DNA of 63,576 bases, filler included, from Stramenopiles sp. TOSAG23-3 (Eukaryota), in the NCBI GenBank assembly GCA_900128585.1. It is 12 parts of 12 records of this genome, joined end to end, with 100 filler letters (N's around TTAATTAATTAA, not from the genome) between each part and the next. Parts side by side here need not be neighbours in the genome. Positions count along the whole stretch, not along the records: positions 49,130 to 57,176 come from LT643072.1; positions 57,277 to 58,456 come from LT646312.1; 10 more parts are not named here. One strand, given 5' to 3'. The translations under genes were made by a program, and so were the position numbers. The first letter of the stretch is position 1, and each line of letters opens with the position of its first letter. Under the pieces are notes generated by a model. It saw only the letters and a list, made by a program, of their open reading frames with translations. It had not been told where the DNA came from and did no database searches. Shown piece by piece: positions 24,686-62,396 of this stretch.

Positions 24686-25020
24686 TTACAACGTAATAGT
24701 AGTAAGAAGAAGGAGGAGACAAGAATTTTTTCTAATACGACGGTATATAAAAAAATAATATTATAAATACTATACTGTATAATAAAAAAAAATAATAATT
24801 TATTTAAATAATACTCCTCTACATTATACTCGTACACAATTCAATATTAATATTATTACTTGCCAAAACCAACATTTGAAAACCAGCCACCTAGTAGAAC
24901 GGGTTTGTCGTATGTACGACCGGATCGTTTAGAAAGTGAATGTTAAACTGTGGTACCTACCTGGCTAGGACGAACCGTGGTAAAGGAGGAGGGCAGCATA
25001 GTAAGTGTCTTGCGTTCACT

Positions 25021-26715
25021 ATGGAGGCATTTCCCTCAAGGCGTTTACTCGGCATGGCCGTTGTTCTTCTTGCTACTCTGGCCGTGGTTTGTGCTCTGGA
25101 CGATGGACTAAGATCCGGGGGGGGGCATGCGATTGACGAAGGGGATGAGGACAAGATCAAGTTTGTAGAAAGTAATGCGGCGGTTGATATGAAGAAAACA
25201 ATAGCAGTGGAGGGTAGCGCTGACGCAAACGTTGCCGTTTCCGCAAGTGAAGGTGTAGTGCTGGGTGACAGGGCTTCTGTGTTTGTACAGGTTGGGGACG
25301 GTGGGGACAGCCGTTCAGTAGAGGGTGGGGACGGCACTGCAATAAAACCAGTTTCAAACGAAGACAAATTGGAGAAGGAGGAACTAGACGAAGATTTAGA
25401 ACCCGCGGAGAGCCCCGGGGAAGGAGGAGACGAACCGGAAGCAGTTGCTACTGACAAGCCCAGTGCCGAAGGGGCAACGATTTCAGTAAACGAAGGTAGC
25501 CATGCTGATGAGGGTGATGCAGCGAATACTGACCACTCGGTGGCGGGAGAACTAATAGACGACGCAGCGGGCAGCGCAGAAAGCCTTCTGGGGGGCGAAG
25601 AGTACGTTGCTGGAACGGAAGGGGCAGTGGGGTCTGTTAAAATATCATTACTAGGCTCGTCGGCGGAAGCATCGTCGGAGCCTCCGAGTGACGATCCTGC
25701 TGAGGCCCATGTACATAATATTGACAATACAGCATCTGGAGAGGAGAGTGGCCCGGTACCTTCTGCACCGGACGCTGGCGAGGACCCCCAAGGCGCGACA
25801 GGAGATCAAGATGGACATGAACCGATTCCACCCCAGGACGAGTTCGCCGACAGCAGTGAACATGGCGATGAAATAGACAAAGGGGGTGCAACGGGCCGAA
25901 AGGACACGCCCCCGACGACGACCGACAGCGTGGAGCCCATTTTGATTCCTGATGATGAAGAGCACATTGACGATACTGCCCGGTTGCATGTCGGTACTTC
26001 TAGCCACCACCATGCTAATGCGAAGGTGAAGGTCCATAATTACAAGGCAGGCGATGCGAACGAAGCCCACGCTGGAAAACTAAAATCAGTCGTATCGACG
26101 AGACTGCCAGCCGATTTGGATATCTCGGAGGCATTGTCTTCGACTGCCACTGGCACAAGTGCCATGCAGGGCTTGCTGGGCATTTTCCCGATAATCCAAA
26201 GTCTTCTTCTAGTTTTCTTCTCTCTGGTTTCTATGATATTGATTTTGTGGTTTCGTTTTAAAGATGTCATCAGTGCCGTGCACGGCAGTAAAGGCCGACT
26301 GTTTTTTGAAACGCCAAAATCAATAATAGACGACTGGAGCGGCATGCCCGGTGCGCACTGTAAGCCGGGCAAAAAAAACAAAGGCAAACTGGCGCAAAAA
26401 CTAAAATCGATAGAAAAAATGTCGGAACTCAAGCCCCCTCTGTTTGGCCCATCGTTTGGGGCAGGAGGGGGCCATAGCGCGAGCCAGACTTCCCAGAAGG
26501 CAAAGATGCCACCATCACCTAGAAACAAGGAGGAAAGCCAGAGTGAACCCCCAAGCAGCGGAGGAAAGGCCACAAAGAAAAAATCGAAGCGAAAGAAGAA
26601 GAAGAAAGGGAAAGAAAATGGTGATTTGCGAGGTACCATTCCTTTTCTTGTTGGCAGGCTGCCGGTTTCTGGGAAAGACGATTTATCGCAGGTATATTCC
26701 CCTTCTACGTATTGA
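25021..26715 (+). CDS. Type I membrane protein with long acidic low-complexity ectodomain and basic cytosolic tail
   Basis: Signal peptide (MAVVLLATLAVVCA), a single TM segment (IFPIIQSLLLVFFSLVSMILILWF) and a Lys-rich tail. Confidence 0.75.
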   Translation: MEAFPSRRLLGMAVVLLATLAVVCALDDGLRSGGGHAIDEGDEDKIKFVESNAAVDMKKTIAVEGSADANVAVSASEGVVLGDRASVFVQVGDGGDSRSVEGGDGTAIKPVSNEDKLEKEELDEDLEPAESPGEGGDEPEAVATDKPSAEGATISVNEGSHADEGDAANTDHSVAGELIDDAAGSAESLLGGEEYVAGTEGAVGSVKISLLGSSAEASSEPPSDDPAEAHVHNIDNTASGEESGPVPSAPDAGEDPQGATGDQDGHEPIPPQDEFADSSEHGDEIDKGGATGRKDTPPTTTDSVEPILIPDDEEHIDDTARLHVGTSSHHHANAKVKVHNYKAGDANEAHAGKLKSVVSTRLPADLDISEALSSTATGTSAMQGLLGIFPIIQSLLLVFFSLVSMILILWFRFKDVISAVHGSKGRLFFETPKSIIDDWSGMPGAHCKPGKKNKGKLAQKLKSIEKMSELKPPLFGPSFGAGGGHSASQTSQKAKMPPSPRNKEESQSEPPSSGGKATKKKSKRKKKKKGKENGDLRGTIPFLVGRLPVSGKDDLSQVYSPSTY

Positions 26716-26900
26716 TTCGAGAAGCGGCGACAAAATGTTTCTAGACGCGCGTTTTTATACTTATCTTGTAACGCACGGACGAAATAAAACTACACAAAGC
26801 GTACAGTGTGCGACGAATTTAACTCGTGCGTGTACCTGGAAACAACATATATGTTTTGTCGTAAATAACTCGACGCGTATCTAAAGGCGTTTAAGCGTTA

Positions 26901-26993
26901 AACAAGAGAAAATTGGCTGTTATTTTAAATAAGTATAATTAAAATTAAAATGTATTGCGAACTGAACTCTACTAAACATTCGAGGTTTACATT
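26901..26993 (-). repeat. Dispersed 3'-flank repeat, family A (partial copy)
   Basis: Aligns with 39751-39840 and 41116-41220. Confidence 0.75.
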
Positions 26994-27110
26994 AAACGCT
27001 TAACTCAATACATTGTATTTTATAGACGTTTAAAAAATCTCACTCTCACTCCGACAACACGTTTCTCATTTAATTGTTCTTAGCCAATCGGCAAGATTGC
27101 ACAAATATTT

Positions 27111-28433
27111 TTAGAAGTTTATGCATTTCTTCGGCAAATTACGGTTTCTTCCCAGGGCGTAATGCAACACCATGTCCACGGTAGCGCCTGCCAGCACGCT
27201 GGCCAACGGGGACCATTTGTGCTGCCTTTTGCTTTCTGTTGTCAAGCTTCCTCCACTGCTTCTGTTTTTATTAACCTCCTCCGCAGTCATGGCGGTTCTA
27301 ACTTTCGATGAATTCACGAGGGAGATGTCTTTTGGGGGATTATATTGCACCCGCCCCCCCAAAGCGCTTTCATCCATGTGCACCACAATGCTGGGAATTT
27401 TTAAGTCTTTGCAAATAGTTAGAACCTTCGCACGCAAAGTTTCAGCGTCCAATGTCAAAATCAACAATGAATTAGAGGAGCTGGTTTCCGTGCCGCCGGG
27501 AGTGGGGGCAGCACCATCGCCGTTCCCTCCAATCAGTAGCGTCAAAAATTGTAGCATTCCATTTTTCATTTCTAGGTCGATGTTTTCCGATCGGATGTTG
27601 GTGGTCGGATTAACCATACGCAGGCTTGCGGCAATCGATTGGGCCCGATTTTGACCAATAAACTTTGGACGGAAGAGATGATGGCACAGGTCGGAAAGCT
27701 GCACACAATTCCAATCGACAAGAACAATCTCTTTGAAGCCGTATCGTGCCAAGGCATCACTAATCTGTGCCCCTGTTGACCCTATTCCAACGATTACGAC
27801 CTTGCAACCTCTCATTTTTACTATATTGTTCGGGTTCATTGTTTTCAAAAACGGTTCCCAAGCATTTTTCCTTGGCAAAGCCCTCTCGTGTGCACTGTTC
27901 TGATTTCTTTCCCAGTCAACAGGCGCACCGGTCGAAACCATAGAAGCTACTTCGTGCAACCGTTTGTACCGCAAGGACTGGGAACCCTCGCCAACCCCCG
28001 GCCCGTTTTCTGGTTGCCTAGTAGCCACGTCCGTGCTTTCGGCCCCACCTTCTGCTAAGAATACCTTGTTCTGACTTTCATACACAGCTAGTTTTTCCAC
28101 TGCAAACGTATACGCGTCGGCAACATCGTGGCTCCATAAATGGGCGTGGTCACTTTCTTGAATTCTGAGCGCAACGTTTTGAAGCTGGTTGCTAGCCATG
28201 GATGTAGAATCTACCAAATTTTCATAAGCATATTCCCCTAGTTCTTGAATGGAGCTTGCCAGTTCAGTCTCACTTCTAATAAATAACAGTTTCGTAAACT
28301 GGCCCCGCCGCAGCTCTAAATCAATGTTAATTTCGTTTTGGTAGATAGCATGTTGCCGAATGTTGTCTTCTATGGTTGCCTCCAAAGTTTCGACACAGTT
28401 CTTTAGTTCTGCAATATCAGAGGCGATGGACAT
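27111..28433 (-). CDS. Divergent UBA5/ThiF-family E1-like protein with N-terminal coiled coil
   Basis: VVIVGIGSTGAQISDALARYG...LVD...LFRP..IG, and MDESALGGRVQY (UBA5 has VSENAVSGHIQ). Confidence 0.8.
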   Translation of the reverse strand: MSIASDIAELKNCVETLEATIEDNIRQHAIYQNEINIDLELRRGQFTKLLFIRSETELASSIQELGEYAYENLVDSTSMASNQLQNVALRIQESDHAHLWSHDVADAYTFAVEKLAVYESQNKVFLAEGGAESTDVATRQPENGPGVGEGSQSLRYKRLHEVASMVSTGAPVDWERNQNSAHERALPRKNAWEPFLKTMNPNNIVKMRGCKVVIVGIGSTGAQISDALARYGFKEIVLVDWNCVQLSDLCHHLFRPKFIGQNRAQSIAASLRMVNPTTNIRSENIDLEMKNGMLQFLTLLIGGNGDGAAPTPGGTETSSSNSLLILTLDAETLRAKVLTICKDLKIPSIVVHMDESALGGRVQYNPPKDISLVNSSKVRTAMTAEEVNKNRSSGGSLTTESKRQHKWSPLASVLAGATVDMVLHYALGRNRNLPKKCINF

Positions 28434-28855
28434 TTTACTTTCTACGAACTTGGCTCAAAATAGGGCACCTGCTAAGAATACCGTGCGCAATTTACTTTTG
28501 CACCAAGTTTGCCAAACTGGTGATTTTCTCTTCTGGCATGTTGATTTCAGACCAGCAGTAGCAGTAGCAGTTCGTTGTTCGTGATCAATTCATTATTTAT
28601 TAATTGTTTTGTTGTTGTTGTTGTTGTTGTTATATAATAGAAGACGACGACTACGTATTACACAGAGGAGTAAATAAAAAAAAATTCATCATGTGACTGA
28701 AAGTACCGTAGTAGTGAGTATAATAATTGGTATAAAATGTAATTAAATTAATAGTACGTAGTACGTACTATTGTCTTTTTCATATACGTAGAGTATGTTT
28801 CTATATATATATTAATAATATATAGAAAGCTATACACTTATCGTTGTTTATTATT

Positions 28856-31738
28856 TTAACTTTTCCCAATCATGCTGTCGACGGTTTCTTTCCCAATCTT
28901 ACCATTCTTCATTTCTTTCAAGAACCGAGACAGACGAACAGTGTAGGGAGTGTATGGGGAAGGAAACTCGTAATGGACCAGGGCAAGGACGCCTTCTTCA
29001 AATTCTCCATAGAGCATTTCCTGTTCCTCCTCTTCGTCGTCAGAGCCATCGTTCTCTTGGACGCGCATGAACAGGGCTTCCACGTCCGTCATGGACAGCC
29101 TGCCCCTCATCAAATTCATAGCCTTGGCAAAGATGCCAAACTCCTTTGGGCTCATGGAGTCCATTGCGTTGGACGACTGCTGCGAATCATCTGCATCGGA
29201 AAATTTTTTAAAGTTATTTCTTAAAAAGCCCCTGTACGGTCGAACAATGGCCTTAATCTTGTTGTTGTTGATTTCCGCTTTGAACGTATCCAAATCAATT
29301 TTATCCGCATGTGGCCGTATGCAGTCCTCGAACAAGAGGGTGACGCAAGTGGCCAAATGTTCCTCTCCCTTGTACTTCAAGCCCGCAAGGTGCAGCAAGG
29401 ATTCCACAAACTCGCCCGAGTCCATCTCTCTGTCGACGCCATCCGCATCGTCGCTGTTTAAATTGATGGCAGTAAACAGGCGCCCGACATCGTTCACTTT
29501 GACGCCCTTTTTGCCACAAATTTTGCAGTCTTTGCAGAACTTTACAAACTCGCCAGATGAAAGGCCGCTGTCCGTGCCCGTATAAATCTTGAACGCATCT
29601 TTGGTATCGTAGACAAACCGTTTCAACACATCTACGACGGCCTCTAGTTCCCCGTCCACGTCTTCCATAAGGTATTTTCGCTGCTGGGCCCTTTTCCGCA
29701 TGAATTCCTTGACGCGCACGCCGTTCAACTTGGCGAAACGGCCCTCCGCAATTTTTCTCACGTTCCTTGATTCCTCCGTCTCCACCGCGTCCTTCTCCTC
29801 TTCGGCCTTTTTCCGCGCCGCCTTGGCCGTTTCCCGCGCTTCCGCGACTCGTTCTCCCATTTTCTCCCACACGTCCCTTTCGACGCCCCTTTGCAGGTTT
29901 TTCAACGCCACCCATTTTGCATCGATGCTGTCCGCCAGGGAAGATTCCTCTCCACACCTGGAACGTAACGCTGTGTCACACTGCGCCACGTACTGCCATT
30001 GGTCCAGTGGCTTTTCCTTGCCTTTGCCCGCCGCATCCTGCGCAGTTATGTACAGGGGAAATGCACCCTCGCCGAAAACCACCTTTTCCACCATATCGAG
30101 GGCTTCCCTGACGGGGCGAACTTCCCACGCATCTTCGACGACTGGGGGCAGGCCCGGGAAAGCTCGCATGAGGTCTGCCATTTCCAGCTGGTCGGGGGCC
30201 ACGGTGGAGGCCCGGCCCTTCAGCCAACCCCGGCCCTTCTCCCCCTTTAGAACGTCTATGCACAGCTCACTCTTTGTCAACGTTTCCCGTACACAGTCCG
30301 TTAGGCCCACCCGTTCCTCGATCGGCCGGATGACGCCCGCATAGTCGGCTTCGGACGGCGGGGAGAGAAGCTCAATTCCCAGCGTGGTCCCCCTCAAAAA
30401 CACGGACTGAAAGTGCCCCTCAACCACGCCGCCGATTGCCTGCCTCACCGCTGCTGCCCAAACGGTAGCGTGGCCTTCCCAAAACGTTTCTCGGGCAACC
30501 ATTGCATCGTGGTCTTCAGTCAGTTGCCGTAGCTTGATGTTGGCCTGCACTATGTTTTCACGGACTTTCCCTAGCTTTTTCTCCAACGATTGGGCCTCCA
30601 CCTTTAGGTGATGCACGTGCTCGTTCAGCTGAACGTTGTCCTTGATGCCCTGGCGAAACGTTTCCCAGGCATCCGTCGCGCTGTGCTCTAACCTCCCTTT
30701 CACGCGGTGGGTAACGCACCGTGTCCATTGGTTAAAGTAGTACCATACCCGGTCCAAGTGCCTGTCGTGGCTGTCCAAAGACAAAATGCACATCAATCGT
30801 TTCAGGTGTTTCTTGTGGATCATGTTCCATTTGCTCCAGTTGGTAAACGCCACCCCGAGCATCCCCCGGTGCCATACTTTTACAACGCCTTTGAAACGGT
30901 TTTCAAACCTTACTCGTTCTTGCCTCGCCTGCTCTTTCCATATTTCGTTTTCCGCGCACTCGATTTTCAGTTTTTCGATGCACTTCATCAGGTATTGCAT
31001 GTACTCCGGGTTGGTCATCCCCGTAAAAAAGGTTTCTGGCACGGGCGTGCTGATCTGGGAGTAATTTGCCAGGCTGCACTCTGCCAGTTTGTCCAAGAGC
31101 AGGCCCATGACGCCCTTGTACTTTCCGAACCCGTCCAGCGACATGGACAGGAAGAAAAACGCGGTCTGGGAAAGGAAAAAGTTCGGGCGGCCCAGGGCCG
31201 CCGTGGCCACAATCGCTTCGCGCCACTTCACCTGCCCGTAGACGGAGAACGAGGAGTAGTGGACGATTTCTGTGGTCAGCGCCCTCGCCCAGTCTTGCAT
31301 TATCAGCCTGGTAAGGTACGTCCCTTCGTCCGTGAACTCGGCGCTGTTGTTGACGGCGAGCGCGACCGTTGGGACACTGGGAAGTGAGTGCCCGCCCCGA
31401 GGCCGCCTAGGGCTTCTTCCGCCAGAAGCAGCGCCGTCGCCGTGCGACGTGTGCACCTCCGCGGCCCGCATGCGCCCCCCGAGCCTCTTCTTTATGACTT
31501 GCCGAGGTTGGCGCCACTTTACTTTATTCGTTTGCCACGTTGATTTCATGATCACTCTTTGCCGTGGCTGGTGGCGACCCCCGTTTGCTGCGACCAGCTT
31601 TGAGCCCCCCGGGCGGCTGGCCGAACCGACGTAGTCTGTGATGATATTTCGTTTTCGAGGGGACGGGTAACCCGGAGAGGACCGTTGCTTTGGCCCTTCC
31701 CTTGGGCGCGAGGGACCATAGTCTTGTGAGCTCTTCAT
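28856..31738 (-). CDS. Large coiled-coil protein with C-terminal EF-hand-like region
   Basis: Long uninterrupted ORF; SSGEFVKFCKDC, MDSGEFVESL, MSPKEF and MLYGEFEE. Start codon uncertain. Confidence 0.75.
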   Translation of the reverse strand: MKSSQDYGPSRPREGPKQRSSPGYPSPRKRNIITDYVGSASRPGGSKLVAANGGRHQPRQRVIMKSTWQTNKVKWRQPRQVIKKRLGGRMRAAEVHTSHGDGAASGGRSPRRPRGGHSLPSVPTVALAVNNSAEFTDEGTYLTRLIMQDWARALTTEIVHYSSFSVYGQVKWREAIVATAALGRPNFFLSQTAFFFLSMSLDGFGKYKGVMGLLLDKLAECSLANYSQISTPVPETFFTGMTNPEYMQYLMKCIEKLKIECAENEIWKEQARQERVRFENRFKGVVKVWHRGMLGVAFTNWSKWNMIHKKHLKRLMCILSLDSHDRHLDRVWYYFNQWTRCVTHRVKGRLEHSATDAWETFRQGIKDNVQLNEHVHHLKVEAQSLEKKLGKVRENIVQANIKLRQLTEDHDAMVARETFWEGHATVWAAAVRQAIGGVVEGHFQSVFLRGTTLGIELLSPPSEADYAGVIRPIEERVGLTDCVRETLTKSELCIDVLKGEKGRGWLKGRASTVAPDQLEMADLMRAFPGLPPVVEDAWEVRPVREALDMVEKVVFGEGAFPLYITAQDAAGKGKEKPLDQWQYVAQCDTALRSRCGEESSLADSIDAKWVALKNLQRGVERDVWEKMGERVAEARETAKAARKKAEEEKDAVETEESRNVRKIAEGRFAKLNGVRVKEFMRKRAQQRKYLMEDVDGELEAVVDVLKRFVYDTKDAFKIYTGTDSGLSSGEFVKFCKDCKICGKKGVKVNDVGRLFTAINLNSDDADGVDREMDSGEFVESLLHLAGLKYKGEEHLATCVTLLFEDCIRPHADKIDLDTFKAEINNNKIKAIVRPYRGFLRNNFKKFSDADDSQQSSNAMDSMSPKEFGIFAKAMNLMRGRLSMTDVEALFMRVQENDGSDDEEEEQEMLYGEFEEGVLALVHYEFPSPYTPYTVRLSRFLKEMKNGKIGKETVDSMIGKS

Positions 31739-32174
31739 TCCCGAGGGGGTGGGGGGAGGGGGGCGGGGCGGCAGAATAGGCAAAACCCCCAAGCGTATCG
31801 ACGGGGTGGTGTACTACTGGCTTGCTCAACGTAACGAAAGGGCAACAAAAAGGCACAAGCTTGGCGCGACTGGAGAGAGAGGGAGAAAGACGGCGGGCGT
31901 AAGACGCGTTTAAAGCCCGTAAAATAAAAACAAATTATGTAGTAAAGCCCGTAATACATACGATTAGAGCCCGTTAGAATTAATTGCAACTGCAACAACA
32001 ACAACAACAACAACAACAAGACAACAACACCATCATGGTGATTGTTTCTGTCACCACCGTTTCGCTTTTTGTTCTTTCTTCTTCTTCAAGTTGATAGCAT
32101 TATAATACATGTAATAACATCTGTCATACATGTTTTTTTATAGAGTTAAAATCAGGGTATTGTTATTAGTGGAG

Positions 32175-32394
32175 TAATTCCGAATTAGCCAAGAACGTAC
32201 TTTTTAGTCGGCTTTGAATACTATAAGTCGTTCCTATGAAGGTGTTACATCGTAATAGCCAGGAAGATTGGCTAATTCGAATTAAGCGGACTAATTCCAA
32301 ATTAGCCAAGAACGTACTTTTTAGTCGGCTTTGAATACTATAAGTCGTTCCTATGAATATGTTATATAGTAATAGCAGCAAGATTGGCTAATTC
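32175..32394. repeat. Two tandem ~117-bp units, each bounded by short inverted repeats (MITE-like)
   Basis: CGAATTAGCCAA (32181-32192) / TTGGCTAATTCG (32268-32279); AATTAGCCAA (32300) / TTGGCTAATT (32384). Confidence 0.8.
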
Positions 32395-32637
32395 TAAAAA
32401 AACTTGATTTTGATGATTGTCATTTACATTTACACTTCTCGCTATGCCATGTATGGTATAATACAAAAGCACCCCAATAAGACAAAAAAAGCTTCCCAAA
32501 TAGGGAAAGCTCAATATTTCTATAAACAATACTAAACAAAAAGAACACAGCACTGCAGGTGCATTACATTGAATCCTCCATTGTCTCTTCATATATATAG
32601 TCAAAATTCTATTCACTTCCTAACTATTACGTTGTAA

Positions 32638-32701
32638 CCGATTATAGCTCAGTTGGTAGAGCGATTGACTGTAGATCAATTGGTCACTAGTTCGATTCTG
32701 G
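32638..32701 (+). tRNA. trnY: tRNA-Tyr(GTA), intronless, 3' end cut by contig end
   Basis: Identical to the copy at 24622-24685. Confidence 0.93.
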
Positions 32702-33714: not shown

Positions 33715-34258
33715 AGTTGAACGATATAAAATAAACGCGCCGAAGAAAAAACCAGTGTCGTTTCCGTCAGCAGGTTTCAAGTCACTGAAAATAGCAAAAG
33801 CCCCCTCTTTTTCTCTGCTGTTTATTAACTTTTTCTTTTCCAATCATGCATTTCATGATCATGATTGATGGTATACGTGCATTAAAAACAAAAAATTGGC
33901 TGTATATATACATGCATTTTCATTCGTTATTAAAGAAATTCTAACTTATTATGCATCGTGATGATATATCGGTAAGATAATGTCAATAATTATTTAGACG
34001 ACACACACATAAGATATAAAAAAAAGAGGGAAGGAGCAGGAAAATACAAGTAAAAAAGAAGAAGAAAAGTATGGGACGTGTTAAAAAATAATTTAATACT
34101 TAAATAACAGCCAATTTTCTTGTTTTTATATTAAGAGAAGTAACCACCCTTTTATTCACTTATACGCGTACACTGTTTTTTCAGAATAAGGTTTTTGGTC
34201 TCAAAATGTTTGCCGTTTTAACTAGATTTCAAGAAAACAATGCATGCTGACAAAGAAT

Positions 34259-39231: not shown

Positions 39232-39750
39232 CTCAGCTTGCTTTTTTTCAAAAATGTGTTCACCGTGTACCCGAAAACAAACTCCCCAAATAAATTTAAT
39301 CAATTTGATTTCAAAACGCGTAGAATTCGGTGCCTTACTTCTTCAATCATTCTTTCAGTCAGTCGTTGAATGTTAATTTTTATTATTATTAGAGTAGTGG
39401 TAGTAGAATACATTAAAAAGATGATCTTTTTTTGTTGAAAAAAAAAAAAAACGACGATGATTTTTACGTTTCAATGCTAATCTTATGTTAATATTTTTCT
39501 CTCATTATTACCTGTAAATCGGCCCAGCGGGCCGACGAAAAAACAAAAAATATTATTATTATTATTTACTCGTATGGCATGCAATTCGTCACACACACAG
39601 CACAGCACAACGTATGCTGTGTTCATTCGCCTGATCATACCCACATTGTTAGACGACTAATCAATTAATCCATTTTTGCTACTCTGTTGTATTGAATTGG
39701 ATGAATGATGAAGAATAAAAAAACAGATGGATTATTATTTCAAATAATAA

Positions 39751-39911
39751 AAACAAGAAAATTGGCTGTTATTTAAGTAATTAAAATTAATGTACTGCGA
39801 GCTGAAATCTAGATTTGGACATTCTAGGTTTGCATTCCTTCATGAACTGCGAACTAATGTTTGCTTTTTTGGTTTTACTAATCGATATACCCTTGTCACT
39901 TAGTCTTGACT
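39751..39911 (-). repeat. Dispersed 3'-flank repeat, family A
   Basis: Colinear homology with 41116-41291. Confidence 0.85.
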
Positions 39912-40870: not shown

Positions 40871-41115
40871 NNNNNNNNNNNNNNNNNNNNNNNNNNNNNN
40901 NNNNNNNNNNNNNNTTAATTAATTAANNNNNNNNNNNNNNNNNNNNNNNNNNNNNNNNNNNNNNNNNNNNATGGTTGCAGTAGATTTAAAAGTAGGTAGT
41001 TATGACGCAACATTCTGGATCAAGAAAGGAACTGCTATGTTGTTGAGTACTGCCGATTAAAAGTCAAACTTAGTTTTGTGCGTGAATAGAATTTCTTAAA
41101 AGTTTAAAGAAAATT

Positions 41116-41291
41116 AAAAACAAAAAATTGGCTGTTATTTAAGTAAAATTAAAATTTAGCTTTCTCATGTACCGCGAAAATGAATCTGCTCCTTTTGTCC
41201 ATTAGAGGTTTACGTTCCTTCATGTACTGCGAACTTTTCTCTGCTCTTGTGGTTTTACTAATCAATAAACCCTTGTCACTTAGTGTTGACT
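41116..41291 (-). repeat. Dispersed 3'-flank repeat, family A
   Basis: Colinear homology with 39751-39911. Confidence 0.85.
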
Positions 41292-49129: not shown

Positions 49130-50965
49130 GACCCGGGACTCCACAATCTTGGCAAGATTGGACGAAGCGCGCTCTTTCAACGCGCCCATCACTTCCTTCA
49201 GCGTGGCTGTGACGAATGTTTTGTTTTCTTGAAACTCCTCTTCTGAAAATTCAGCAATCAGCTTGACTTTTACGTTCTGGTAACTTATCTGCTTCTTTTT
49301 CACCCGAAGCTCAACATCTATGAGTTCGTCCAATCGGGTCAACAGGCCATTGGCGGCCCTGTCTTTCTTCTTGAACAACCGGCCCGAAGCTTCCTCCCCG
49401 TCGGGTGGCCCCGCTTGAGGTTTGGTGCTGACACGAAAGGCTTCGAATGCTGGGCTCAGGCGAAAGACAAACGCGTCCGTTCCTTCACACAGGCTGTGGT
49501 ATCCTTGCAGGGCAGGCAGCCACGAGTCGGGGGTAAACGCGCCAAAGACAACCCCAGCGTCGGGCGATTTTTCCGAGACCAAAGGTTTAACAAGGAGCAA
49601 TGCTGGGCCTTTATTTTGTTTGTAGGCATGTACCACCTTGCCCAGACCGTACCCGTCGCATGCAGAGCTATACAAAAGCTTCAAGTTTTTCTGGGAAAGC
49701 GTGTGCGGCAAAATACCGTAGAGGTCCATGAGCGTGCCCTTGTCCACCCTCCTCTCGCTGCTGGTAGCAGATTCTGCCGACACGTTCCCGCCAAAAACTA
49801 ACAGGCCGCACTGCCCACCTTTCACCTTTTTGTTCTGCAAGTCCACCTTTGGCTCGAAATAGGAAGAAAAGCCCCGGTGGTTCGTTGCACTCGGAGCTTC
49901 AAACTCGTTGTCCACCTTCGAGCGGTGCTGATCCATCAGGCCGGCAATGTCCTTTCGCTTTAGAGGCAGCCTGAACGCAGCGTTGTGTATAGATTGGAAC
50001 GCGCTGGCGGGGAGGCGCCCGGCCGGAAGTCCTAATTCTGGGGTGGCCTGGTAATAAAGTAGAAGACTCGTCGAGAACCGGTAAATCGCCTTTCTTCCCT
50101 CCAACAAGTAGATGTCAATGATACGCAGGACGCTGTCGTACGACAGGGCGGTCACAAAAAAACGGTGCACCCAGGCCGTCAGCATTCTGAAAGAGCTCTG
50201 CTGGAGCTCGTCGCTGGTCCCAACAAACAGCATGTCTCCAGTTGCCTTGCGTTTATGATTGTTCCCCAAGTCGATGCAGGTTCGGACGACGACTTGTTCG
50301 CGCTCTTGGGGCCCCATAAAGAAATAGTGAGAGGAACGCTTCATCATCGCGCTGACTGCGGCAAGGACGAACGGTTCAGGCAGGTAGTACAACAGGATCG
50401 CAACAATGTCGGGTAGCATGGGGCAGGATTTCACTGGGAACAGGTTTGAAATGACGCACAAGAGGCGTTTCACGGCTTGGAGCCCCGCCTCGGTCAGCTG
50501 GTGCTCGTCCAACGCTTGCGAGGGTGCACCAAACCACGGCGTGTGTCTGCTTGCCAGTGTGATGCCCTCTTGTCGGCTCGTGCCGAAGAGGGACCGGAGA
50601 GTAGCATTGTACTGGGAGCGGTACTTTGTCAGGCTCGTTTCAAGGTCCTCCAAGTCGATCCCGACGGACAGCAACCATATGAACGGTCTAGTATACGGGG
50701 CAACCCCCTTTCGAACGGACTTCTTTTTAAAGTACGTTTCTCCCACTACAGTGTTTCTGCACGATTTTTTCTCGTAATCACCGACAACCTTCAGCAACTG
50801 CTCTTTCCCCGTTACCCCTAGACTGGCTTCTCTTTTACTGTATTTTCTGTTCTCCGATTCCAAATTCTCTAGCACATATTTACAGACTGCGCTAACAACC
50901 TCTGTCCTGGAACCCCTCGAGCTCCTTTGACCTTTTCTTGCCGCACCACCACCATACGCCGCCAT
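49130..50965 (-). CDS. TBC (Rab-GAP) + TLDc protein, TBC1D24-like; 3' truncated
   Basis: VRKGV..YTRPFIW, CPMLPDIVAILL and LRIIDIYLLEGRKAIYRF; TLDc LLYSSACDGYGL...VFGAF...FVFRLSP. Confidence 0.88.
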
Positions 50966-51731
50966 GCCCCTGTAACTGAAACGTATGCGCGCGTATATAC
51001 CGTATACACACAACCAAAGACGCCCACCAAACCTTCTCCCAAATTTGTAGTCGTCTATATATATACCCACCGTACCACCACGAACACCACACCGTCCAGC
51101 TAACCGAAAGACAACCAAACCAAAGGAACTGAGCAACGTAATATACCCTAACTTATCATTTTCCAAATAAAAAATCAAACCACCCCGCCACTTTTCTTGT
51201 TATGATAAACGAAAACATTTATATGAAATTCGTTAATCTCTCTCTTTCTCTAATCGTTCCGTTGCAAAAATATAATAAATACTATGGGGACCACCTGGAT
51301 GATTTGATGTTTTTTTTTCTTCTGATCGATGTTTCTTCTTCTTCTGCTGATGTTTGTTGGTTGTTTGTTGTTTGTGATGTAATGGTTCTGGTGAATTTAT
51401 TAACTACATATTTTGTATTCTTATTTTCCAGTTTATTGATTTTAAGGCCGGTATCTACGAGTATATAACCCCCCGCCTTTTTTGTCCATATGATGATGAT
51501 GATGACGACCTTTTTTTGCAAAATACCACACTTAAATCTATAAGAGCTATTTACGAGCTATTTACATAATATGGTCCGCTTTTGGGGTCATGATAAAAAT
51601 AGCTTGTAATAAATTAAAGCGATACATAGATACATATCACAAAAGTCACATCCGGTAACTACTGCTTATATTATTGAAGAAAAAAGTTAGTTACCGCCGT
51701 TCGTTGTCCACCTACAGAACAAAATTGGAAA

Positions 51732-52988
51732 ATGGGGTGCTGCATGTCGAAGGAGTTTATATACGTCGGAAAGAGCGGTATGGCTACCTACAATGCCAAC
51801 AAGCTGTGGGGGATGATGGGAAATTACAGCAAACAGCACCTGGAACGTTCGCAATGGCCTAACCCTACGATAGAGCACATTGAGGAGGGGTTTGATGTTC
51901 TGGTGGAAAAGTTCAAACCGCTGAACGAGGAGATGTGCAACTCTTTGGCAGAAGACCCAGCCAAAGCTCGCTGCCTTGCCCTGGAGTACTTTCACGTCGT
52001 GGCCCACGTTCCAATACTTTCCCACCTGGAAAAGTACGGGGTGGAAAACGGGGAGGAGCGCTTGACCGCAATAATCCGGGCGTACGATTCTTCCATAGAT
52101 GCGGGCGTTTTCAAAACGACGTGTGGGAAACAAAACTGGATGCACAGTGGGCTGTTCCTGTACCAGCTCTGTTTTCAATACGGGTCCATGGGAGATTTGG
52201 ACACCTGGCACGAGAAAGTCGTCCGGGGATACAAGCCCCTCAGTTTGCAAACGTCTCACAACTACAAAGATAAGGCCGGCACCCTTTGCGCGGAAGTCGG
52301 TGACGCCACGATCACGGCACTCCCGGTGCTTGTAATGCTTGGAGAAAAGGAGAAGGCCGCCGAATTGCTCGCCTCGCTGGGCTTCGCGCTTGATGACATT
52401 GGGTTCATCGCATGGTACGACATTGTGAAGAAGCACTCGGAGCCGCTTGGTGACAATATCTTTAGCCGGGAAACTTGGTACACGCTGTGCAAACTCTTGC
52501 TTTTTCTTTCGCTCCCTGAAGCCGAGGTGGAGAAATGTTCTGGGGACATTAAAAACTGGATCCCCGAACCAACAAAGTTGGCGGAATGCAACAAAGCGTG
52601 GATGACGCAAGGGTTCGGCCAGGCCTCGGTGCTGAACCTGGGGGCCCGCGCGTACGAAGTGTTGGGAGACCACGAAAAGGCGATGGAGACGGCGAAACTG
52701 GGCCTTATCGAGTCTTGCAATCAGAAGAAAAAGTCGGTTGCCTCGGACTGCCACGTTGTAATGGGGCGTGTCGCTGCAAAATTGGGCGACACGGAGGTTG
52801 CAAAGGGATCGTTTGGCAGTGCCTGCAGCGTGGCGAAAGAGGCACGCTGCTATCTCCTGCAACTCATGGCAGCCAGGGAATGGAAAAAGGCAATTCCAGA
52901 CGCTACCGAACCGGAGTCCATAATTGACGAAGCATGCAAATCGATGAAAAAAGGTCGAGAAAATTTTGCCTCCCTGCTAGAAAGATAG
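51732..52988 (+). CDS. Dually acylated (MGCC) helical/TPR-like protein
   Basis: MGCCMSK N-terminus; C-terminal helical repeats (ARAYEVLGDHEKA, MGRVAAKLGDTEVA). Confidence 0.7.
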   Translation: MGCCMSKEFIYVGKSGMATYNANKLWGMMGNYSKQHLERSQWPNPTIEHIEEGFDVLVEKFKPLNEEMCNSLAEDPAKARCLALEYFHVVAHVPILSHLEKYGVENGEERLTAIIRAYDSSIDAGVFKTTCGKQNWMHSGLFLYQLCFQYGSMGDLDTWHEKVVRGYKPLSLQTSHNYKDKAGTLCAEVGDATITALPVLVMLGEKEKAAELLASLGFALDDIGFIAWYDIVKKHSEPLGDNIFSRETWYTLCKLLLFLSLPEAEVEKCSGDIKNWIPEPTKLAECNKAWMTQGFGQASVLNLGARAYEVLGDHEKAMETAKLGLIESCNQKKKSVASDCHVVMGRVAAKLGDTEVAKGSFGSACSVAKEARCYLLQLMAAREWKKAIPDATEPESIIDEACKSMKKGRENFASLLER

Positions 52989-53675
52989 ATATAAAACAGT
53001 GGCAGTTTTGATTGTTTTTTCAGTTTTTTCGTAAAAAATAAGTTCTTAATGTAGGATTCTTACTTTAGTTACTGTAGTATTTGTAAGTTTTACCCATCAT
53101 ATAAACGACGTATTTGTTTTTAAAACATTTTGACTATCATATGGAACAAGGAGGAGTTTGGGTTCTTGAACGGTTTTTTCCTTCCTTTTTTTTTTTTTGA
53201 GCGTCTTAAAACTTAAAACATATATAATTTGTTTTTCATATGATACACCTATCCCTCTCTCTCTATTGCAACATTCCACAAAGAGTTCCATCTCGTACTG
53301 ACGTATCCGTGTATGTACCGGTACGATTGGCCGTCCATCAAAAATGTGCTGGTATGGTACACGGTACCTGTACCTGGTTTTATACCTGGTACCTGTGGTA
53401 GTATACATAAAAATACCTCCTGTACTCCTGTACGTACTTGTTGTTATTTTTTATTTTTTATTTCAATTCTTCTTCTTCTTCTGCGCGAAAACAACAAAAC
53501 AACAAACCCACGAAGAACTGAACAAAAAAACTAATTAAATTTCAATTGTCAGAAATTTTAAAGAAAAGACAAAAATTTGGTTTTAATTCTATCCGTCATT
53601 CTTTTTTAAGATTCAACCCTGTTTGGACTGGCTGTTGGGTTGTTGGTGTTTCCCCCCTATGCTCTTTCGAGAACA

Positions 53676-55235
53676 ATGAACCTGAGGCATTTGGACCAGA
53701 TCCAAAACTCGCTACCGCCGGATACAAACTGTGGGGATATCTTGGGTTCCTATCGAGAACGAGTTGCCGGGAATCGTCGAAGAAAACTCAACAAGCGTAA
53801 ACACAGCCACTTTGATGAGCCAGAGATTACTCCATTTTCATGTTCATACAACCACGACGGCCAGTTCTTGGCGATTACCTCGTTGGAGCAAACGTGTATG
53901 CTCTACGACTGTTTGACGCGGTCTGTCGCCCAGTCCTTCTCCTGCAGCGCGCGTTCCCGAGGAGGTGGTGCTCTCGTCGGCAGGCCGACAGAAGTGGGGA
54001 CGGTGTCCGGTTGCGCTAAGCCTTGCCATCGGGCAAACGAGACCTTTTTTCCAACAGTGGTGTGGCTTCATCGGTCGCAAGGGTTGCTCGTTGCGAGTGG
54101 CACTGTGCTGTTTCTTCGCCGCCCGAGAACTGGCACGGACGTTCCCGTACTGCGGTGGCATAACCCTATTCTGGGGCTAAGCGCCCACCCCACCCTTCCC
54201 GCCATCGCAATGCTCTGGGACCAGTTCGGGGTGTACCTAATAGACCTTCGTCCTGCTTTGCGCGAAAAGCGGGACCGGGATTGCACTGTATTTACCGTTT
54301 TTGAAGAAGAGGGCAGCAAGCGGCCGTTTTGTGCTGGGTTCGGCGAGGGCGGGACTTTCATTTTCGTGTCGTTGGATTGCACCATTTTTGCATTGTCGTT
54401 TGACTACAAGGACCTGGACTGCCCATCGTTCTCGCTTTCCCTCCAAAAGCCTTTGTTCACGGGAACTAAAAAGCGCGATTACATAGAGTCCCTTCGTTGC
54501 CACCCGTCCCGTCCTTACCTGATAGCGAGCCGTTCGGGGCGAACCTTGCACCTGTTCAAAATGGTGACGCCGTCGACGACTGCGCGGCTGGGCCCCGCCG
54601 CCGCCCGCCCCCCACCAGCCCTGGACCTGATCGATGTCATGTCGTTCGAGGATATGGTGAACCGTTCGAAATTTTCTTCCTATGGGTTTGCGGGGGACAC
54701 GGACTACGTGTACGCGTCTTCGTGGAAGCACAACCATATATTTGTGTGGGACCCTAGCGTCGGCGGCAAGCTAGTGTCGACGCTGGTCGGGGAGTGCCAC
54801 GGGGACCGGAACGTGTGCATTGCCTGGCACCCCCACCGCTCGGAGCTTGTTTCCATATCGGAGAGCGGGGAGACCGTCCTGTGGAGGCGGAAAATTTCAG
54901 ACAAAATTTTGGCGTTCGAGGAGTTGGAGGAGAACGTCTTGTACGTAGAAGGCGAGAACGAGTTCGACATGATCGTCGACGAGCGTACTGGGAAGCAGAT
55001 CCCGGCGCGATACTGTAAGCAGCTTGCGGGGGCGCAGGTTTCCGTGGAGGCCCAGGCGCGGATCGACGTGATCTCGACCTTAGGGGCCGGCGATGTGGAC
55101 CCGTCTCGGGCCCCCGGGTCTCCCCTCACGTTCGAGGAGTTGAGGAGGCTCGTGGTAGTACCGGCGCGCCCGGCGGCGGGGAAAGGGGAGCCGCGACTGA
55201 CGAGTATGGTGGGGTGCGGGGGGGCAACGGTGTAA
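53676..55235 (+). CDS. RBBP5: RBBP5/Swd1 (COMPASS WD40 subunit)
   Basis: MNLRHLD start, FEDMVNR, LVSTLVG..IAWHPHR and the signature FEELEENVLYVEGENEFD. The extreme C-terminus may be frameshifted. Confidence 0.85.
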   Translation: MNLRHLDQIQNSLPPDTNCGDILGSYRERVAGNRRRKLNKRKHSHFDEPEITPFSCSYNHDGQFLAITSLEQTCMLYDCLTRSVAQSFSCSARSRGGGALVGRPTEVGTVSGCAKPCHRANETFFPTVVWLHRSQGLLVASGTVLFLRRPRTGTDVPVLRWHNPILGLSAHPTLPAIAMLWDQFGVYLIDLRPALREKRDRDCTVFTVFEEEGSKRPFCAGFGEGGTFIFVSLDCTIFALSFDYKDLDCPSFSLSLQKPLFTGTKKRDYIESLRCHPSRPYLIASRSGRTLHLFKMVTPSTTARLGPAAARPPPALDLIDVMSFEDMVNRSKFSSYGFAGDTDYVYASSWKHNHIFVWDPSVGGKLVSTLVGECHGDRNVCIAWHPHRSELVSISESGETVLWRRKISDKILAFEELEENVLYVEGENEFDMIVDERTGKQIPARYCKQLAGAQVSVEAQARIDVISTLGAGDVDPSRAPGSPLTFEELRRLVVVPARPAAGKGEPRLTSMVGCGGATV

Positions 55236-55792
55236 GGGTAGTTGCGGACGTGACGGGCGGACAAGCCATCTTCCGAGTGCCGAAACCATGTCGCGCCCAC
55301 CACCACGCAAATGGAATGCGCACCTCCTAGCTTCCAAAGATACTTAGTGTTACTTTTTGTACGATCGTACTTCGTAGTATATGGGGGGATCTTGGTCATT
55401 TTCTAAATTTCAACCGTTGATCAACTTTAACAGCAAATCACCATCACAGTCACAAATTACTACTAACACCAAATAAGAGCATAATAGGTAAGAAAATTTT
55501 CAACAACTAAAAAGATTTGTTAGCATAAGCACTAAAAAAATTTCGCACCATACAGCGTCACAAAACCATCAACAACTAAAAAGTTTTGAGACGGTAAAGT
55601 TGAACTCAAAATAGTTCCAAACTCCCATTCGAAACTCGCACCAATTACGCTCACAATGAAGAAATTATTTATGTGGAATTTACACCATAAATAATTAAAA
55701 AACGTTCAAAAAAAAGTCCCCTTTCATATTTTTAAGAAACTAAACTAATAGTTTCACTTCCAAAATCTAACCCTTCACTTACTCCCCCCAAA

Positions 55793-56560
55793 ATGGCATC
55801 CTTCCCGTCGACACTTGCCCGCTCGACCCTCACCGGCACCCGCACCGCCATCTTCGGCGGCAGCGCTGGCATGGGAAAGGCCACCGCGGCGGCCGTGCTA
55901 GCGCTGGGTGGGCGTGTCACGTTGATCTCGCGCACCCAGTCCAAGCTTGACGCCGCCGCCGCAGAACTTGGTGGCGGCGACAATATCGAGGTCGCCGCAA
56001 TCGACGCCATGAACACCGCGGCCGTCGCGAAATTCTTTGCCGACGTGGAGCCAGGCTACTTCAACCACATCGTCGTGACGCTGGGCCCTGCTGTGCACGG
56101 TGCAGACGACATCTTTGGGGAGGCGACGCTGGACAAGGTGCAGCAGCAGTTCTTCAAGTTCAACGTGCCGTGGACGGTGTCCAAGTACGGCGCGTCCAAG
56201 GTGGCAGATGGCGGAAGCCTGACGTTTTTCTCGGGCACACTGTCGCGAGCCATCACCAAAGGCTCCAGCTGCCTCGGCCCGGTAAACGCAGCCGTAGAGT
56301 GCCTGGCCAAGTGCCTGGCCAAGGATCTCGGGCCTCGCCTACGTGTGAACTGTGTCAGCCCGACGCTTACGCGCACCTCCGCGGTGACAGGCGGGATGAC
56401 GGCCGAACAGGCGGAGGGAATGTTCGTTGGTTTTGGAAAAACGATACCCGCCGGACGCTCTGGGGAGGCTATGGACTTGGGTCACGCCGTGGCCTTTTTG
56501 ATCACCAACAACTTTATGACCGGCCACGTGCTGGATGTGGACGGTGGGAAGACGCTGTAG
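55793..56560 (+). CDS. Atypical short-chain dehydrogenase/reductase (PRK07041-like, lacks YxxxK)
   Basis: FGGSAGMG, GGSLTFFSG, LGPVNAAVECLAK, RVNCVSP and FMTGHVLDVDGG. Confidence 0.92.
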   Translation: MASFPSTLARSTLTGTRTAIFGGSAGMGKATAAAVLALGGRVTLISRTQSKLDAAAAELGGGDNIEVAAIDAMNTAAVAKFFADVEPGYFNHIVVTLGPAVHGADDIFGEATLDKVQQQFFKFNVPWTVSKYGASKVADGGSLTFFSGTLSRAITKGSSCLGPVNAAVECLAKCLAKDLGPRLRVNCVSPTLTRTSAVTGGMTAEQAEGMFVGFGKTIPAGRSGEAMDLGHAVAFLITNNFMTGHVLDVDGGKTL

Positions 56561-56691
56561 GCACTAGGCGGTTAGGGGTAGAGTGTCCCAAACCAAGCGA
56601 CTCTGTTGTTATGAAACATAGTATCGTGTAAATGACTCTCGCACATTAATTATTCCTTTTTAGACGACGACGCGCGAATATATAGTATAGT

Positions 56692-56770
56692 AAAAAAAAC
56701 CAAAATATATAGTATGTTTTAAGACTCTCATTTTAAATCAAATACTACTTCAAATCCAACCCTAATCCTA
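56692..56770 (+). repeat. Dispersed 3'-flank repeat, family B
   Basis: Matches 19241-19298 and 21056-21085. Confidence 0.85.
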
Positions 56771-57295
56771 CGTCATGGTGAATGGTTATTAGTCATCACG
56801 GATGAATAATATAGTATAGTAATATTATTGATTGTGCTTGCATCCATGTGGCCGACAAAAAGACTCTTTGTGGTGAATGCATAGGGCTGGACATCCACGT
56901 CTGCCCTAGTGATTTTCCAGCGTATTCAACAACCAAATAGCAAAACTAAGTTCAGCTGTTAATACTCTTCAGTCGGACACAAAACTAACCATTCGAGCGT
57001 TCAACGGTTAAAATTTAGAAAATGACCAAGATCCCCCCATATACAAAACAAATTATATATAGTATGTTCTAAGTCAAAAAAGAAAAGAAAAAAGAAGGTA
57101 AAACCGTTCAAGAACCCAAACTCCTCCTTGTTCCAGAATAAGACTTCTATTATTCATCATTCAAACTAACATAAAANNNNNNNNNNNNNNNNNNNNNNNN
57201 NNNNNNNNNNNNNNNNNNNNTTAATTAATTAANNNNNNNNNNNNNNNNNNNNNNNNNNNNNNNNNNNNNNNNNNNNATCTTTAAAAAGTGGTCGA

Positions 57296-59147: not shown

Positions 59148-60675
59148 GCACTCGCTCGCTCATCGATGCACGGCTTGCGAGAATGAGGCCTTACTCTCAT
59201 ACTTCGTGAACAATGTTTTCTTTCTTTTTTTATATTATCGGGTATAATCAAATACAGTACCTATTATTCATTTTTCTTCTTCTCTTCTTCTTCTCTTCTT
59301 TTTTTTTCTTCTTTTGTTTGTTGGTTGTTGTTGTGATGTGTTTTGTTTTCTATTAATAATGTATTATACGTATTAAAAAATAATAAAATACGACGCAATT
59401 TCGTATTTTATTATTTTTTAAAATTATTAATTACAGAAAGTGCCAGTAAAATACGAGTAAAATACGAGTAAAAAATAAAATACCGCATTTAATAGAAATA
59501 AAAAAAAGATATTTTAAAATAATAATAAATAAAAATAAAAGTGGGTACGGTAACACGTACCGGTACAGGTACCTGGTACCTGGTACCGGTACGAACAATA
59601 GGTACTACGGTACGGGTGGATTATCTACGGGGAGTATTATGTGAGTAAGTGAGTGAGTGAGTGAGCGAATAGTAAAACGAAAGAAAGCAACAAAAAAATG
59701 AATGATAAAAAAGATAATTCTTCATTTAGTATAGGCNNNNNNNNNNNNNNNNNNNNNNNNNNNNNNNNNNNNNNNNNNNNTTAATTAATTAANNNNNNNN
59801 NNNNNNNNNNNNNNNNNNNNNNNNNNNNNNNNNNNNAATGATCTCTAAAAAATAAAGAAGGGAAAATAGCATGTGAGGAAAGCAGTTATTTTTTTTTTTG
59901 GAAGAATGAATGTACATAAATAATAATAATTTAAAAAAAAAAGCATTATTTCAATATACATCTAATAACATTAATGGTATTAGATGTATTATTTAGGGTT
60001 ATGATTAGGTCAATATCCTAACCCCTAACAAAATTATAAGTACGAGTCATGAATTGACGAAAATAGGAAAAACCTGTGATATGGATAATACTTAAATGTA
60101 ATATTAGTTATATCCAATAGATACACCCATCCATGTTTTTTATTATCCCATGAAGCATGTAGAAGGGGCTCTTGTAACGGGCAAGAAGAAAATAGTATTG
60201 CACAGCATTGCTATTGCTAGCAGTAACGTTGCCGATTACGTTTAGTGCTATGACGGGTTGTGGGTTTCTTCTTTTACCTCAGGAGGTTTGAACCTGTAAT
60301 CTTCGTCTTTCTGTTGTAAGTCTAGATGAAGAGTCGTCTAACTATACAGTAACATGGCAATACAGTGGCATTAAAGAATTAGTTCGCAGAATTTCCATAG
60401 TGTTGTTGACTCGCTGTTGATTTTTATTTTTTGCAACAACAATAATAATAATAAAAAATATAAAACAATCCGCGGGAAGAACGGTAGTAAATATTTTGAT
60501 ACTGGTAAACATTCGCGACAACGTTTAGATAATTTGGACGGTGTGTTTCGTCCTAACCGAATTTTCCGTTCATAAAAATATTTCTTAATTCTTCGAGCAT
60601 TTTCCTGGGCGAGAGAAAAAAGGCTGGCGTTCTGATTTAGAAGGTATTCGACAGAGTAATACAAGCCGTTCGAAA

Positions 60676-61927: not shown

Positions 61928-62396
61928 CGTGGTGGTCTGGTGATGAAAGGAGTAACCTTCGCCGTTCTCGTAAATGTAAGCTGCAACGGACGAACGAACG
62001 AATGAATGAATCGATAGTCAAAATATGAATCGATCCTGTCGATAAATGTAACTATTTAAACTCTTTCCTCCTCTCCGTTAAAAAATTACATAGTTACACT
62101 TATTCTCAACTTATAAAACATATCCTCCCCACACAAACAAACAAGGAAGGTGTTCATCAAAAAACATAAATTAATAAATATACATATTATTAACTATATT
62201 ATATATAATAATATTCCATTGTTGTATTATTATGTATATTGTGCACAGTGTAACGAAATTACCATAAAATAATTATATATGAGAAATATAGAATATNNNN
62301 NNNNNNNNNNNNNNNNNNNNNNNNNNNNNNNNNNNNNNNNTTAATTAATTAANNNNNNNNNNNNNNNNNNNNNNNNNNNNNNNNNNNNNNNNNNNN

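Follow-up and report, generated by a model that had tools for sequence, protein, structure and literature searches.

A probable gene-carrying, transposase-less DNA transposon with a conserved leader and exchangeable cargo in a marine stramenopile

When a single gene of a protist stands between two inverted repeats, was it carried there by a transposon, or did repeats come to lie on either side of a resident gene? The question is raised by a stretch of DNA from Stramenopiles sp. TOSAG23-3 (assembly GCA_900128585.1), 63,576 bases long and called the window here, in which an intronless gene for a short-chain dehydrogenase/reductase (SDR) is enclosed by 44-nt terminal inverted repeats (TIRs). All coordinates are positions in this window; the piece that holds the element spans 49130-57176 (LT643072.1). 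We conclude, with a probability of about 0.68, that 55377-57044 belongs, as a single copy, to a family of gene-carrying, cut-and-paste TIR DNA transposons that are non-autonomous and combine a conserved leader with exchangeable cargo. The grounds are the TIR ends, the lack of a transposase, two unrelated contexts with two cargos, an excess depth of the leader and a chimeric, host-derived content. The parts specific to the family are the 44-nt ends and the left-hand leader of about 330-370 nt.

Much of the comparison relies on a second locus, L001, which lies inside a 41,459-bp metagenome contig of the Joint Genome Institute (JGI; Ga0099797_100176) and was retrieved with the 22-nt core of the end. 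The parts of the element, including its open reading frame (ORF), are as follows.

55377..55420, plus strand: left TIR, 44 nt, found by repeat search; 43 of 44 positions match the right arm and 44 of 44 match L001 1995-2038
55421..55448, plus strand: inner extension of the left end; over 55421-55450, 24 of 30 positions are identical to L001 and 8 of 30 to the right end
55449..55488, plus strand: variable spacer, 40 nt here against about 220 other bases in L001
55489..55748, plus strand: conserved leader module, 260 nt, with 225 matches and 35 mismatches (86.5 %) to L001 2289-2559
55749..55792, plus strand: cargo-specific 44 nt ahead of the SDR start codon, without similarity to L001
55793..56560, plus strand: intronless SDR gene, 255 aa, the main cargo (ORF search; Pfam adh_short_C2, E 5.1e-25, residues 25-253)
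56691..56770, plus strand: family-B repeat belonging to the SDR gene itself, about 79 nt long, 131 nt past the SDR stop and 90 % identical to 19215-19298
56842..56916, minus strand: captured fragment of NOG1/GTPBP4, 25 aa, with stop codons on either side (translation and PDB sequence search)
56926..56940, plus strand: third, diverged copy of the 15-mer TCAACAACTAAAAAG, with two mismatches, 61 nt inside the right TIR
57001..57044, minus strand: right TIR, 44 nt (repeat search, core search against shuffles and direct count)

The two arms are complementary at 43 of 44 positions, the sole mismatch falling at arm position 35, and they enclose 1580 nt, giving an element of 1,668 bp in total. A search with the 29-nt arm core (up to three mismatches) matched only the two arms in the 63,576-base window and nothing in 100 dinucleotide shuffles. 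Besides the SDR, the element holds three ORFs of at least 80 aa, all overlapping the SDR out of frame; none of the four has a transposase domain and the three gave no Pfam match, leaving the SDR as the only real ORF. A first-pass annotation, made from the sequence alone, had described near-perfect 44-bp inverted ends around an intact intronless 255-aa SDR gene with its own family-B repeat on the 3' side, a repeated leader motif, an RBBP5 neighbour and no transposase, and on all of these points our analysis agrees with it.

L001 provides the second context. It has the left terminus without a single difference, followed by a leader module with both 15-mers, at an unrelated site: its outer flank is the 3' end of a tyrosyl-DNA phosphodiesterase (Tdp1) gene and another dispersed repeat, that of the present element an RBBP5-like gene. 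In place of the SDR, an ORF of 289 aa stands behind the leader in the same orientation, starting 97 nt past it against 44 nt here. The terminus is thus not confined to one site, L001 being the one other locus actually read. The 289-aa protein belongs to no Pfam or NCBIfam family, and 5.8 billion proteins contained only two relatives, at 77 % and 46 % identity; hydrophobic stretches seen by eye suggest that this orphan is membrane-like. Reading the leader insert and the 3' region of L001 in six frames revealed nothing recognisable by eye, and no further search was made. The repeat upstream of the element end in L001 is common to four contigs of the window at 81-98 %, which places L001 in the same lineage or in a close relative of it. 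This repeat, at L001 1890-1979 between the Tdp1 stop and the element end, is presumed to be the one labelled family A, which occurs in the window at 39748-39789, 34081-34128, 41113-41156, 26890-26946 and 14688-14715.

Between the two loci the terminus is unchanged (44 of 44) against 86.5 % identity in the leader, and the chance of 44 identical positions at the leader's rate is about 0.002. This suggests that the ends are under constraint, a pattern that would arise if continued movement were limited to copies whose ends are intact.

The leader is the other part common to both loci. An AT-rich stretch of 372 nt separates the left arm from the SDR start, and within it TCAACAACTAAAAAG occurs exactly at 55500 and at 55569, as the first-pass annotation had reported; the third copy at 56926 is new. 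The motif is found nowhere else in the window, and none of 100 shuffles gave three or more matches. Public sequencing runs add to the comparison: 20 of 24 listed runs, from 13 studies, contain part of 54600-57176, and 12 contain at least half of its sampled words. In the marine DNA run X5, one contig breaks at exactly 55448/55489, the same module border as in L001. DNA contigs of three runs and one RNA contig begin at 55704-55738, where the repeated leader meets the unique cargo. Six contigs of a second marine DNA run, X2, have G at 55644 and 55659, the state found in L001, and the version of the leader in the window is therefore a minority variant.

We presume that the module at 55489-55748 is a promoter and 5' untranslated region (5'UTR) or a region bound by the transposase. 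The single-strand fold of end and leader gave a weak signal (z = -2.77, with 1 of 100 shuffles as good). Scans for bacterial-type promoters and terminators, whose models are unsuited to a eukaryote, did no better than shuffles (4 against 2.8 and 2 against 2.2 expected). Neither the leader nor the RBBP5-like gene was covered by RNA contigs in the Logan assemblies, which carries no evidential weight. Searches of viral contigs with two leader patterns and the 22-nt end core, and of prokaryote genome contigs with one leader pattern and the same core, gave no match and are uninformative, because protist DNA is not expected there. A 12-codon upstream ORF at 55656-55694, conserved at both loci, was considered and rejected, as five X2 contigs alter the G of its ATG at 55658.

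The SDR itself looks intact. Its adh_short_C2 domain is full-length, and NCBIfam PRK07041 matches it with 174 bits, under the cutoff of 257 bits. All 31 invariant columns of an alignment of 12 sequences (the SDR and 11 relatives at 87 % to 38 % identity) are retained, and the glycine-rich GGSAGMG is conserved across the alignment. The classical catalytic motif of SDRs is Tyr-x-x-x-Lys. At this position all 12 aligned sequences, bacterial members included, read L..VN, and the closest solved chain (3uce, annotated only as 'Dehydrogenase') also has N there. The absence of the motif is a trait of the subfamily and no sign that this copy has decayed. Members of the subfamily occur in marine alphaproteobacteria, diatoms, a green alga and Palpitomonas. 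An identical protein is present in an ENA cluster from marine metagenome assemblies, with relatives at 88, 85, 72 and 69 %. The GC content at third codon positions (GC3) of the SDR, 0.78, is the highest of 33 ORFs counted, the others ranging from 0.42 to 0.76.

Expression of the SDR had been proposed as a check. Contigs from an RNA library cover 55719-56154 with no difference and 56401-56597 with two, which is compatible with transcription but no proof of it, as RNA libraries can contain DNA. N-terminal extensions in relatives of both cargo proteins were considered as read-through of the leader and rejected, since they look like real coding sequence.

An intact SDR could also belong to an old, fixed, immobile relic: the family would be extinct and the SDR would by now be a host gene with transposon-derived flanks and promoter. 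The graded identities of its relatives (88, 85, 72 and 69 %) resemble vertical inheritance, all subfamily-invariant residues are kept, the leaders of the two copies have diverged by 13.5 %, the stretch is present in runs of 13 studies, and the left junction recurs in X5, an independent run of 2025. Neutral decay, however, would not be expected to leave the ends at 43 of 44 and 44 of 44 beside such divergence of the leader, and several leader variants coexist in one metagenome. We therefore regard a relic as quite unlikely.

The 3' part of the element holds a fragment of a second host gene, which the first-pass annotation did not contain. It runs antisense to the SDR and is identical at 24 of 25 residues to human NOG1/GTPBP4 (PDB 6lss_4, residues 187-211, E 7.6e-11); in the same PDB sequence search the Nog1 chains of four further species matched it, and a Pfam search with a 30-aa piece gave no match. 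Two RNA contigs, of 1,789 and 577 nt, touch 56843-56906 at about 85 % because the NOG1 fragment lies there. The presence of a short antisense fragment of a second host gene within the element argues that its interior was assembled by capture and is not native intergenic DNA. An Rfam search of 55300-57176 returned only mir-137 below threshold (23 against 56.7 bits, E 0.089), which we took as chance.

Whether the family has further copies was approached through depth in X2, X5 and a third marine DNA run, X10, using Logan contigs at a likeness of at least 80 %. Logan contigs drop rare variants, and their summed depth does not equal copy number. The depths were as follows.

RBBP5-like flank: X2 4.3-7.7 (one bin 20.8); X5 4.7-7.9; X10 4.6
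Left-end bin: X2 33.8; X5 21.2; X10 3.3
Leader bins: X2 28.3, 38.5, 87.5 and 18.3; X5 up to 20.3; X10 up to 47.6
Right-end bin: X2 31; X5 11.7; X10 3.2

Leader bins lay above the flank in all three runs and end bins in two of the three, and X2 contained at least six variant leader contigs. This excess supports several copies, not a count.

Several observations weigh against a mobile family that moves the SDR as a unit. The end bins of X10 (3.3 and 3.2) are not above its flank (4.6), the right-end bin includes a high-copy repeat that makes its excess ambiguous, and summed contig depth is no copy number. Repetition can be demonstrated for the left side alone; the subterminal part on the right (56922-57007) has single-copy depth (5.2 in X2). 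At L001 a right TIR is absent from the 1,984 nt downstream, which reach 496 nt past the ORF stop (against 441 nt from stop to right TIR here). A target duplication cannot be demonstrated with GTATAT common to all three termini, and the X5 contig across the left junction has only 28 nt inside the arm, less than the 31 nt of our bridging rule. Joints of contigs were judged among the matches listed for four runs, beyond which lay another 968 pieces and 186 loose ends; the empty-site joint of 55376 to 57045 was not among them. Finally, an autonomous partner is not known; the 28 ORFs searched in the window and L001 contain no transposase domain.

Some of these points would also fit a history of two events, in which a mobile end with its leader landed upstream of a resident SDR and a solo inverted end landed downstream, so that the SDR never moved. 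This would account for the excess depth of the end and left leader alone beside a single-copy right subterminal part, for L001 with a left end and leader before its ORF and no right end in the sequence downstream, and for the lack of an empty site among the listed matches. Such an arrangement could even be a precursor state, as Pack-type elements have been reported to arise from two neighbouring insertions (PMC8903248). The family-B repeat bears on this history, and for it the flanks matter.

53676..55235, plus strand: flanking RBBP5/Swd1-like WD40 gene, whose best solved relatives are RBBP5/Swd1 (E 6.8e-17)
57045..57135, plus strand: variant family-B repeat outside the element, 82 % identical to 53142-53242, in inverted orientation

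Family-B repeats lie 0, 73, 91, 131 and 154 nt past the stops of five genes in the window, once inverted. The RBBP5-like gene, whose stop is 141 nt from the left TIR, has no such copy before the element; with the element removed, the copy near 57055 would come to lie about 150 nt past its stop. The insertion argument of the first-pass annotation, which rested on this distance, thus holds roughly, and we presume that 57045-57135 is the displaced 3' motif of the RBBP5-like gene. Two events would leave that gene without a 3' repeat and the SDR with two (56691 and 57055), and one insertion of the whole unit is for this reason moderately favoured over two insertions around a resident gene. Against two events also stand the NOG1 scrap, whose place between SDR and right TIR suggests that the interior is a patchwork, the difference of the arms at just 1 of 44 positions, and the diverged leader 15-mer near the right end. 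We consider two events unlikely, and a single gene-carrying element the better account of the locus.

The family-B repeat is itself extremely abundant: the bin 56664-56749 has a depth of 15,028 in X2, 7,293 in X5 and 2,967 in X10, against about 5 for the flanking genes, and loose contig ends cluster at 56692-56695 and 56741-56770. Further copies lie at 19215-19298, 21055-21085, 14588-14632 and, inverted, at 53142-53242; the repeat stands at the very ends of two RNA contigs and occurs in either orientation past stop codons. It could be a 3'-end or terminator signal, or an element that resembles miniature inverted-repeat transposable elements (MITEs) and favours 3' regions. Longer variants in inverted orientation (53142-53242 and 57038-57135) bracket the RBBP5-like gene and the element over 3.9 kb, probably by coincidence given the abundance of the repeat. 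An apparent skip from 56735 to 57048 in X5, considered as an excision, was rejected as a cross-match between two family-B copies.

The outermost bases of the element read ...GTAG TATA TGGGGGG ... CCCCCCA TATA CAAAA..., and at both junctions a direct repeat of TA, TATA or ATAT, or none, is a possible reading. The known termini, two here and one in L001, all have GTATAT ahead of the G run; homology begins exactly at GTATAT, and the bases before it are unrelated. Because GTATAT is common to all three termini, these junctions do not establish a target duplication. The first-pass annotation had taken the outer bases for a direct repeat and derived from it an empty site with GTATAC; the repeat is readable, but neither the duplication nor that empty site is established. 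GTATAT may belong to the end itself, may be a palindromic target that is strongly preferred, or may be a duplication. The superfamily had been left open, rightly so with no transposase and GTATAT at three of three termini.

An X2 contig covers 55384-55604 with no other letters and a second one 56781-57038 with one, reaching inward from both arms; a run that is possibly independent of the source thus has each arm connected to its interior. At the left junction, the X5 contig spans 55195-55404. The right junction abuts the high-copy repeat, which was skipped in contig mapping, and 57094-57176 lacks cover for that reason; on this side the flank is limited to 132 nt, since the piece stops at 57176. 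A metatranscriptome contig of 665 nt from a further run, X15, contains an end-like stretch matching 55383-55445 with 7 differences in 63 positions, 60 nt from the contig end and in a context unlike this locus; some copy of the terminus may be transcribed within the RNA of another gene.

Could the inverted ends be an artefact of assembly or amplification, such as an inverted chimera? The window consists of 12 separate pieces, seven of 8,047-8,112 bp in descending length followed by five of exactly 1,180 bp. They look like whole contigs of a fragmented assembly. The 11 linkers between them (8113-8212, 16320-16419 and so on to 62297-62396) are N runs around TTAATTAATTAA, across which adjacency is meaningless. 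Such high fragmentation, with contigs of 1.2-8 kb, would suit an artefact, as would the perfect 79-nt inverted ends of the contig 24622-32701. Those ends (24622-24700 and 32623-32701) were considered as a second TIR element and rejected: they are two copies of a tRNA gene severed by the contig ends (48.5 bits with Rfam tRNA, truncated on the 3' side; none found by ARAGORN), and the assembly therefore broke at a repeated tRNA gene. With the arms joined to the interior in other runs (the X2 and X5 contigs above) and the same terminus in the JGI contig, an artefact is contradicted by independent data, and its probability is close to negligible. Four contigs have in common, in both orientations and at 80-92 %, tandem or satellite-like repeats of some tens of bases (17350-17549, 24003-24230, 1630-1741 and 59264-59318).

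Inverted repeats around a single gene, with no transposase known, would also be expected of a segment inverted by a recombinase or of a foldback-type hotspot of rearrangement. Among the joints listed, however, none had the interior in the opposite orientation, the sole joint of opposite strands lying inside the high-copy repeat, and an inversion switch leaves unexplained a second, unrelated locus that has this end together with other cargo. We hold this mechanism to be very improbable.

Elsewhere in the window, the ORFs with Pfam matches are all ordinary genes of eukaryotic cells, for example exportin-2, NPL4, MAD1, P450 and RabGAP-TBC/TLDc. The best named relatives of the exportin-2, in animals, oomycetes, a xanthophyte and an amoeba, are 43-46 % identical, and unnamed marine metagenome proteins reach 66-68 %. 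These relatives mark the host as an uncultured marine protist.

For a transposon of this kind, a transposase encoded elsewhere would recognise the ends, and possibly the subterminal TCAACAACTAAAAAG repeats, and move the unit. Here the whole unit would have inserted between the RBBP5-like ORF and the 3' repeat of that gene, bringing as cargo a complete SDR transcription unit (44 nt of 5' sequence, the ORF, the 3' region and the host's usual 3' repeat). Cargo might be gained in Pack style, either through a template switch in the course of gap repair or through host ORFs taking the place of the transposase ORF behind its promoter and 5'UTR. The leader would then be the promoter and 5'UTR of the ancestral transposase gene, now driving expression of the cargo. 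Of the earlier proposal of a recent Pack-type element that moves a whole gene, the Pack-type character gains from the second locus and the NOG1 fragment; its recency does not, as no empty site was seen.

A more specific version, which we put forward only tentatively and regard as rather doubtful, is that of an 'expression-cassette' transposon, in which ends and leader serve as a movable promoter/5'UTR frame, with complete host ORFs exchanged behind it. If it were true, a transposase substrate would be carrying genes that are functional, transcribed and possibly present as sole copies, and these could be duplicated, relocated or exchanged between lineages of uncultured marine protists. Should the leader prove to be a promoter, the family would be a candidate backbone for vectors with which to build genetic tools in an uncultured lineage, and it would also serve as a marker of structural variation at the population level in metagenomes. 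Most documented gene capture by DNA transposons concerns exon fragments in plants, along with a small number of whole genes in fungi. What part it plays in free-living protists has hardly been explored, as complete genomes are lacking for most lineages. Identical ends and a common leader before two different intact ORFs point to a way in which entire genes, together with a ready-made upstream region, are moved or duplicated in the compact genomes of marine protists, which have few introns.

How does the element compare with known systems? MITEs are non-autonomous, non-coding, TIR-bounded elements under about 800 bp in AT-rich intergenic DNA near genes. The element resembles them in its TIRs and its AT-rich intergenic site near a gene, and differs from them in its length of 1,668 bp and its intact 255-aa ORF. 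Bacterial integron cassettes and MITE-flanked mobilisation units likewise present exchangeable single-gene cargo in a common mobile frame, downstream of a sequence shared by all. The analogy is functional only: the recombination chemistry differs, attC/attI sites and an integrase are absent here, and we claim no membership. Among transposons with short target duplications, Sola elements produce 4 bp. The junctions of the element can be read as TA, TATA, ATAT or none. For other groups, a further source lists TA for Tc1/mariner/pogo, 0-4 bp for Harbinger/ISL2EU/Spy and 4 bp for Ginger1 and IS481EU, and describes piggyBac as having 5'-CC..GG-3' ends with TTAA, which the termini here do not fit (PMC10045372).

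A further parallel is the capture and amplification of a complete histone H3 gene by hAT transposons in Dothideomycete fungi (PMC6710886). Both cases involve a TIR DNA transposon with a complete coding sequence of housekeeping type (transduplication); the fungal carrier, however, is reported as complete and present in hundreds of copies, with captured genes made inactive through repeat-induced point mutation (RIP), whereas the present carrier has no transposase, its cargo looks intact and its excess depth is modest.

Another parallel is the Pack-TYPE group of plants (Pack-MULE, Pack-CACTA, Pack-PIF, Pack-Mariner and Pack-hAT), which is defined by captured fragments of host genes (PMC8903248). 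As described there, such elements share with ours non-autonomous TIRs without a transposase, host coding DNA from more than one locus (here SDR and NOG1) and an interior that varies between members, but they are described in plants and typically contain exon fragments, whereas this element is from a protist and holds a whole intact gene with its 3' region. Two further differences are the long leader, conserved and placed immediately before the cargo ORF in each of the two known copies, and the lack of a known autonomous relative that would anchor the superfamily. The literature searched, outside which lay most subscription journals and supplements, described no such element from marine protists. 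Our element works like a Pack-TYPE transposon while standing outside that group as described for plant hosts, and it differs from the Pack-TYPE and fungal hAT elements in its marine protist host, its complete and apparently intact main cargo, and a conserved leader before exchangeable ORFs.

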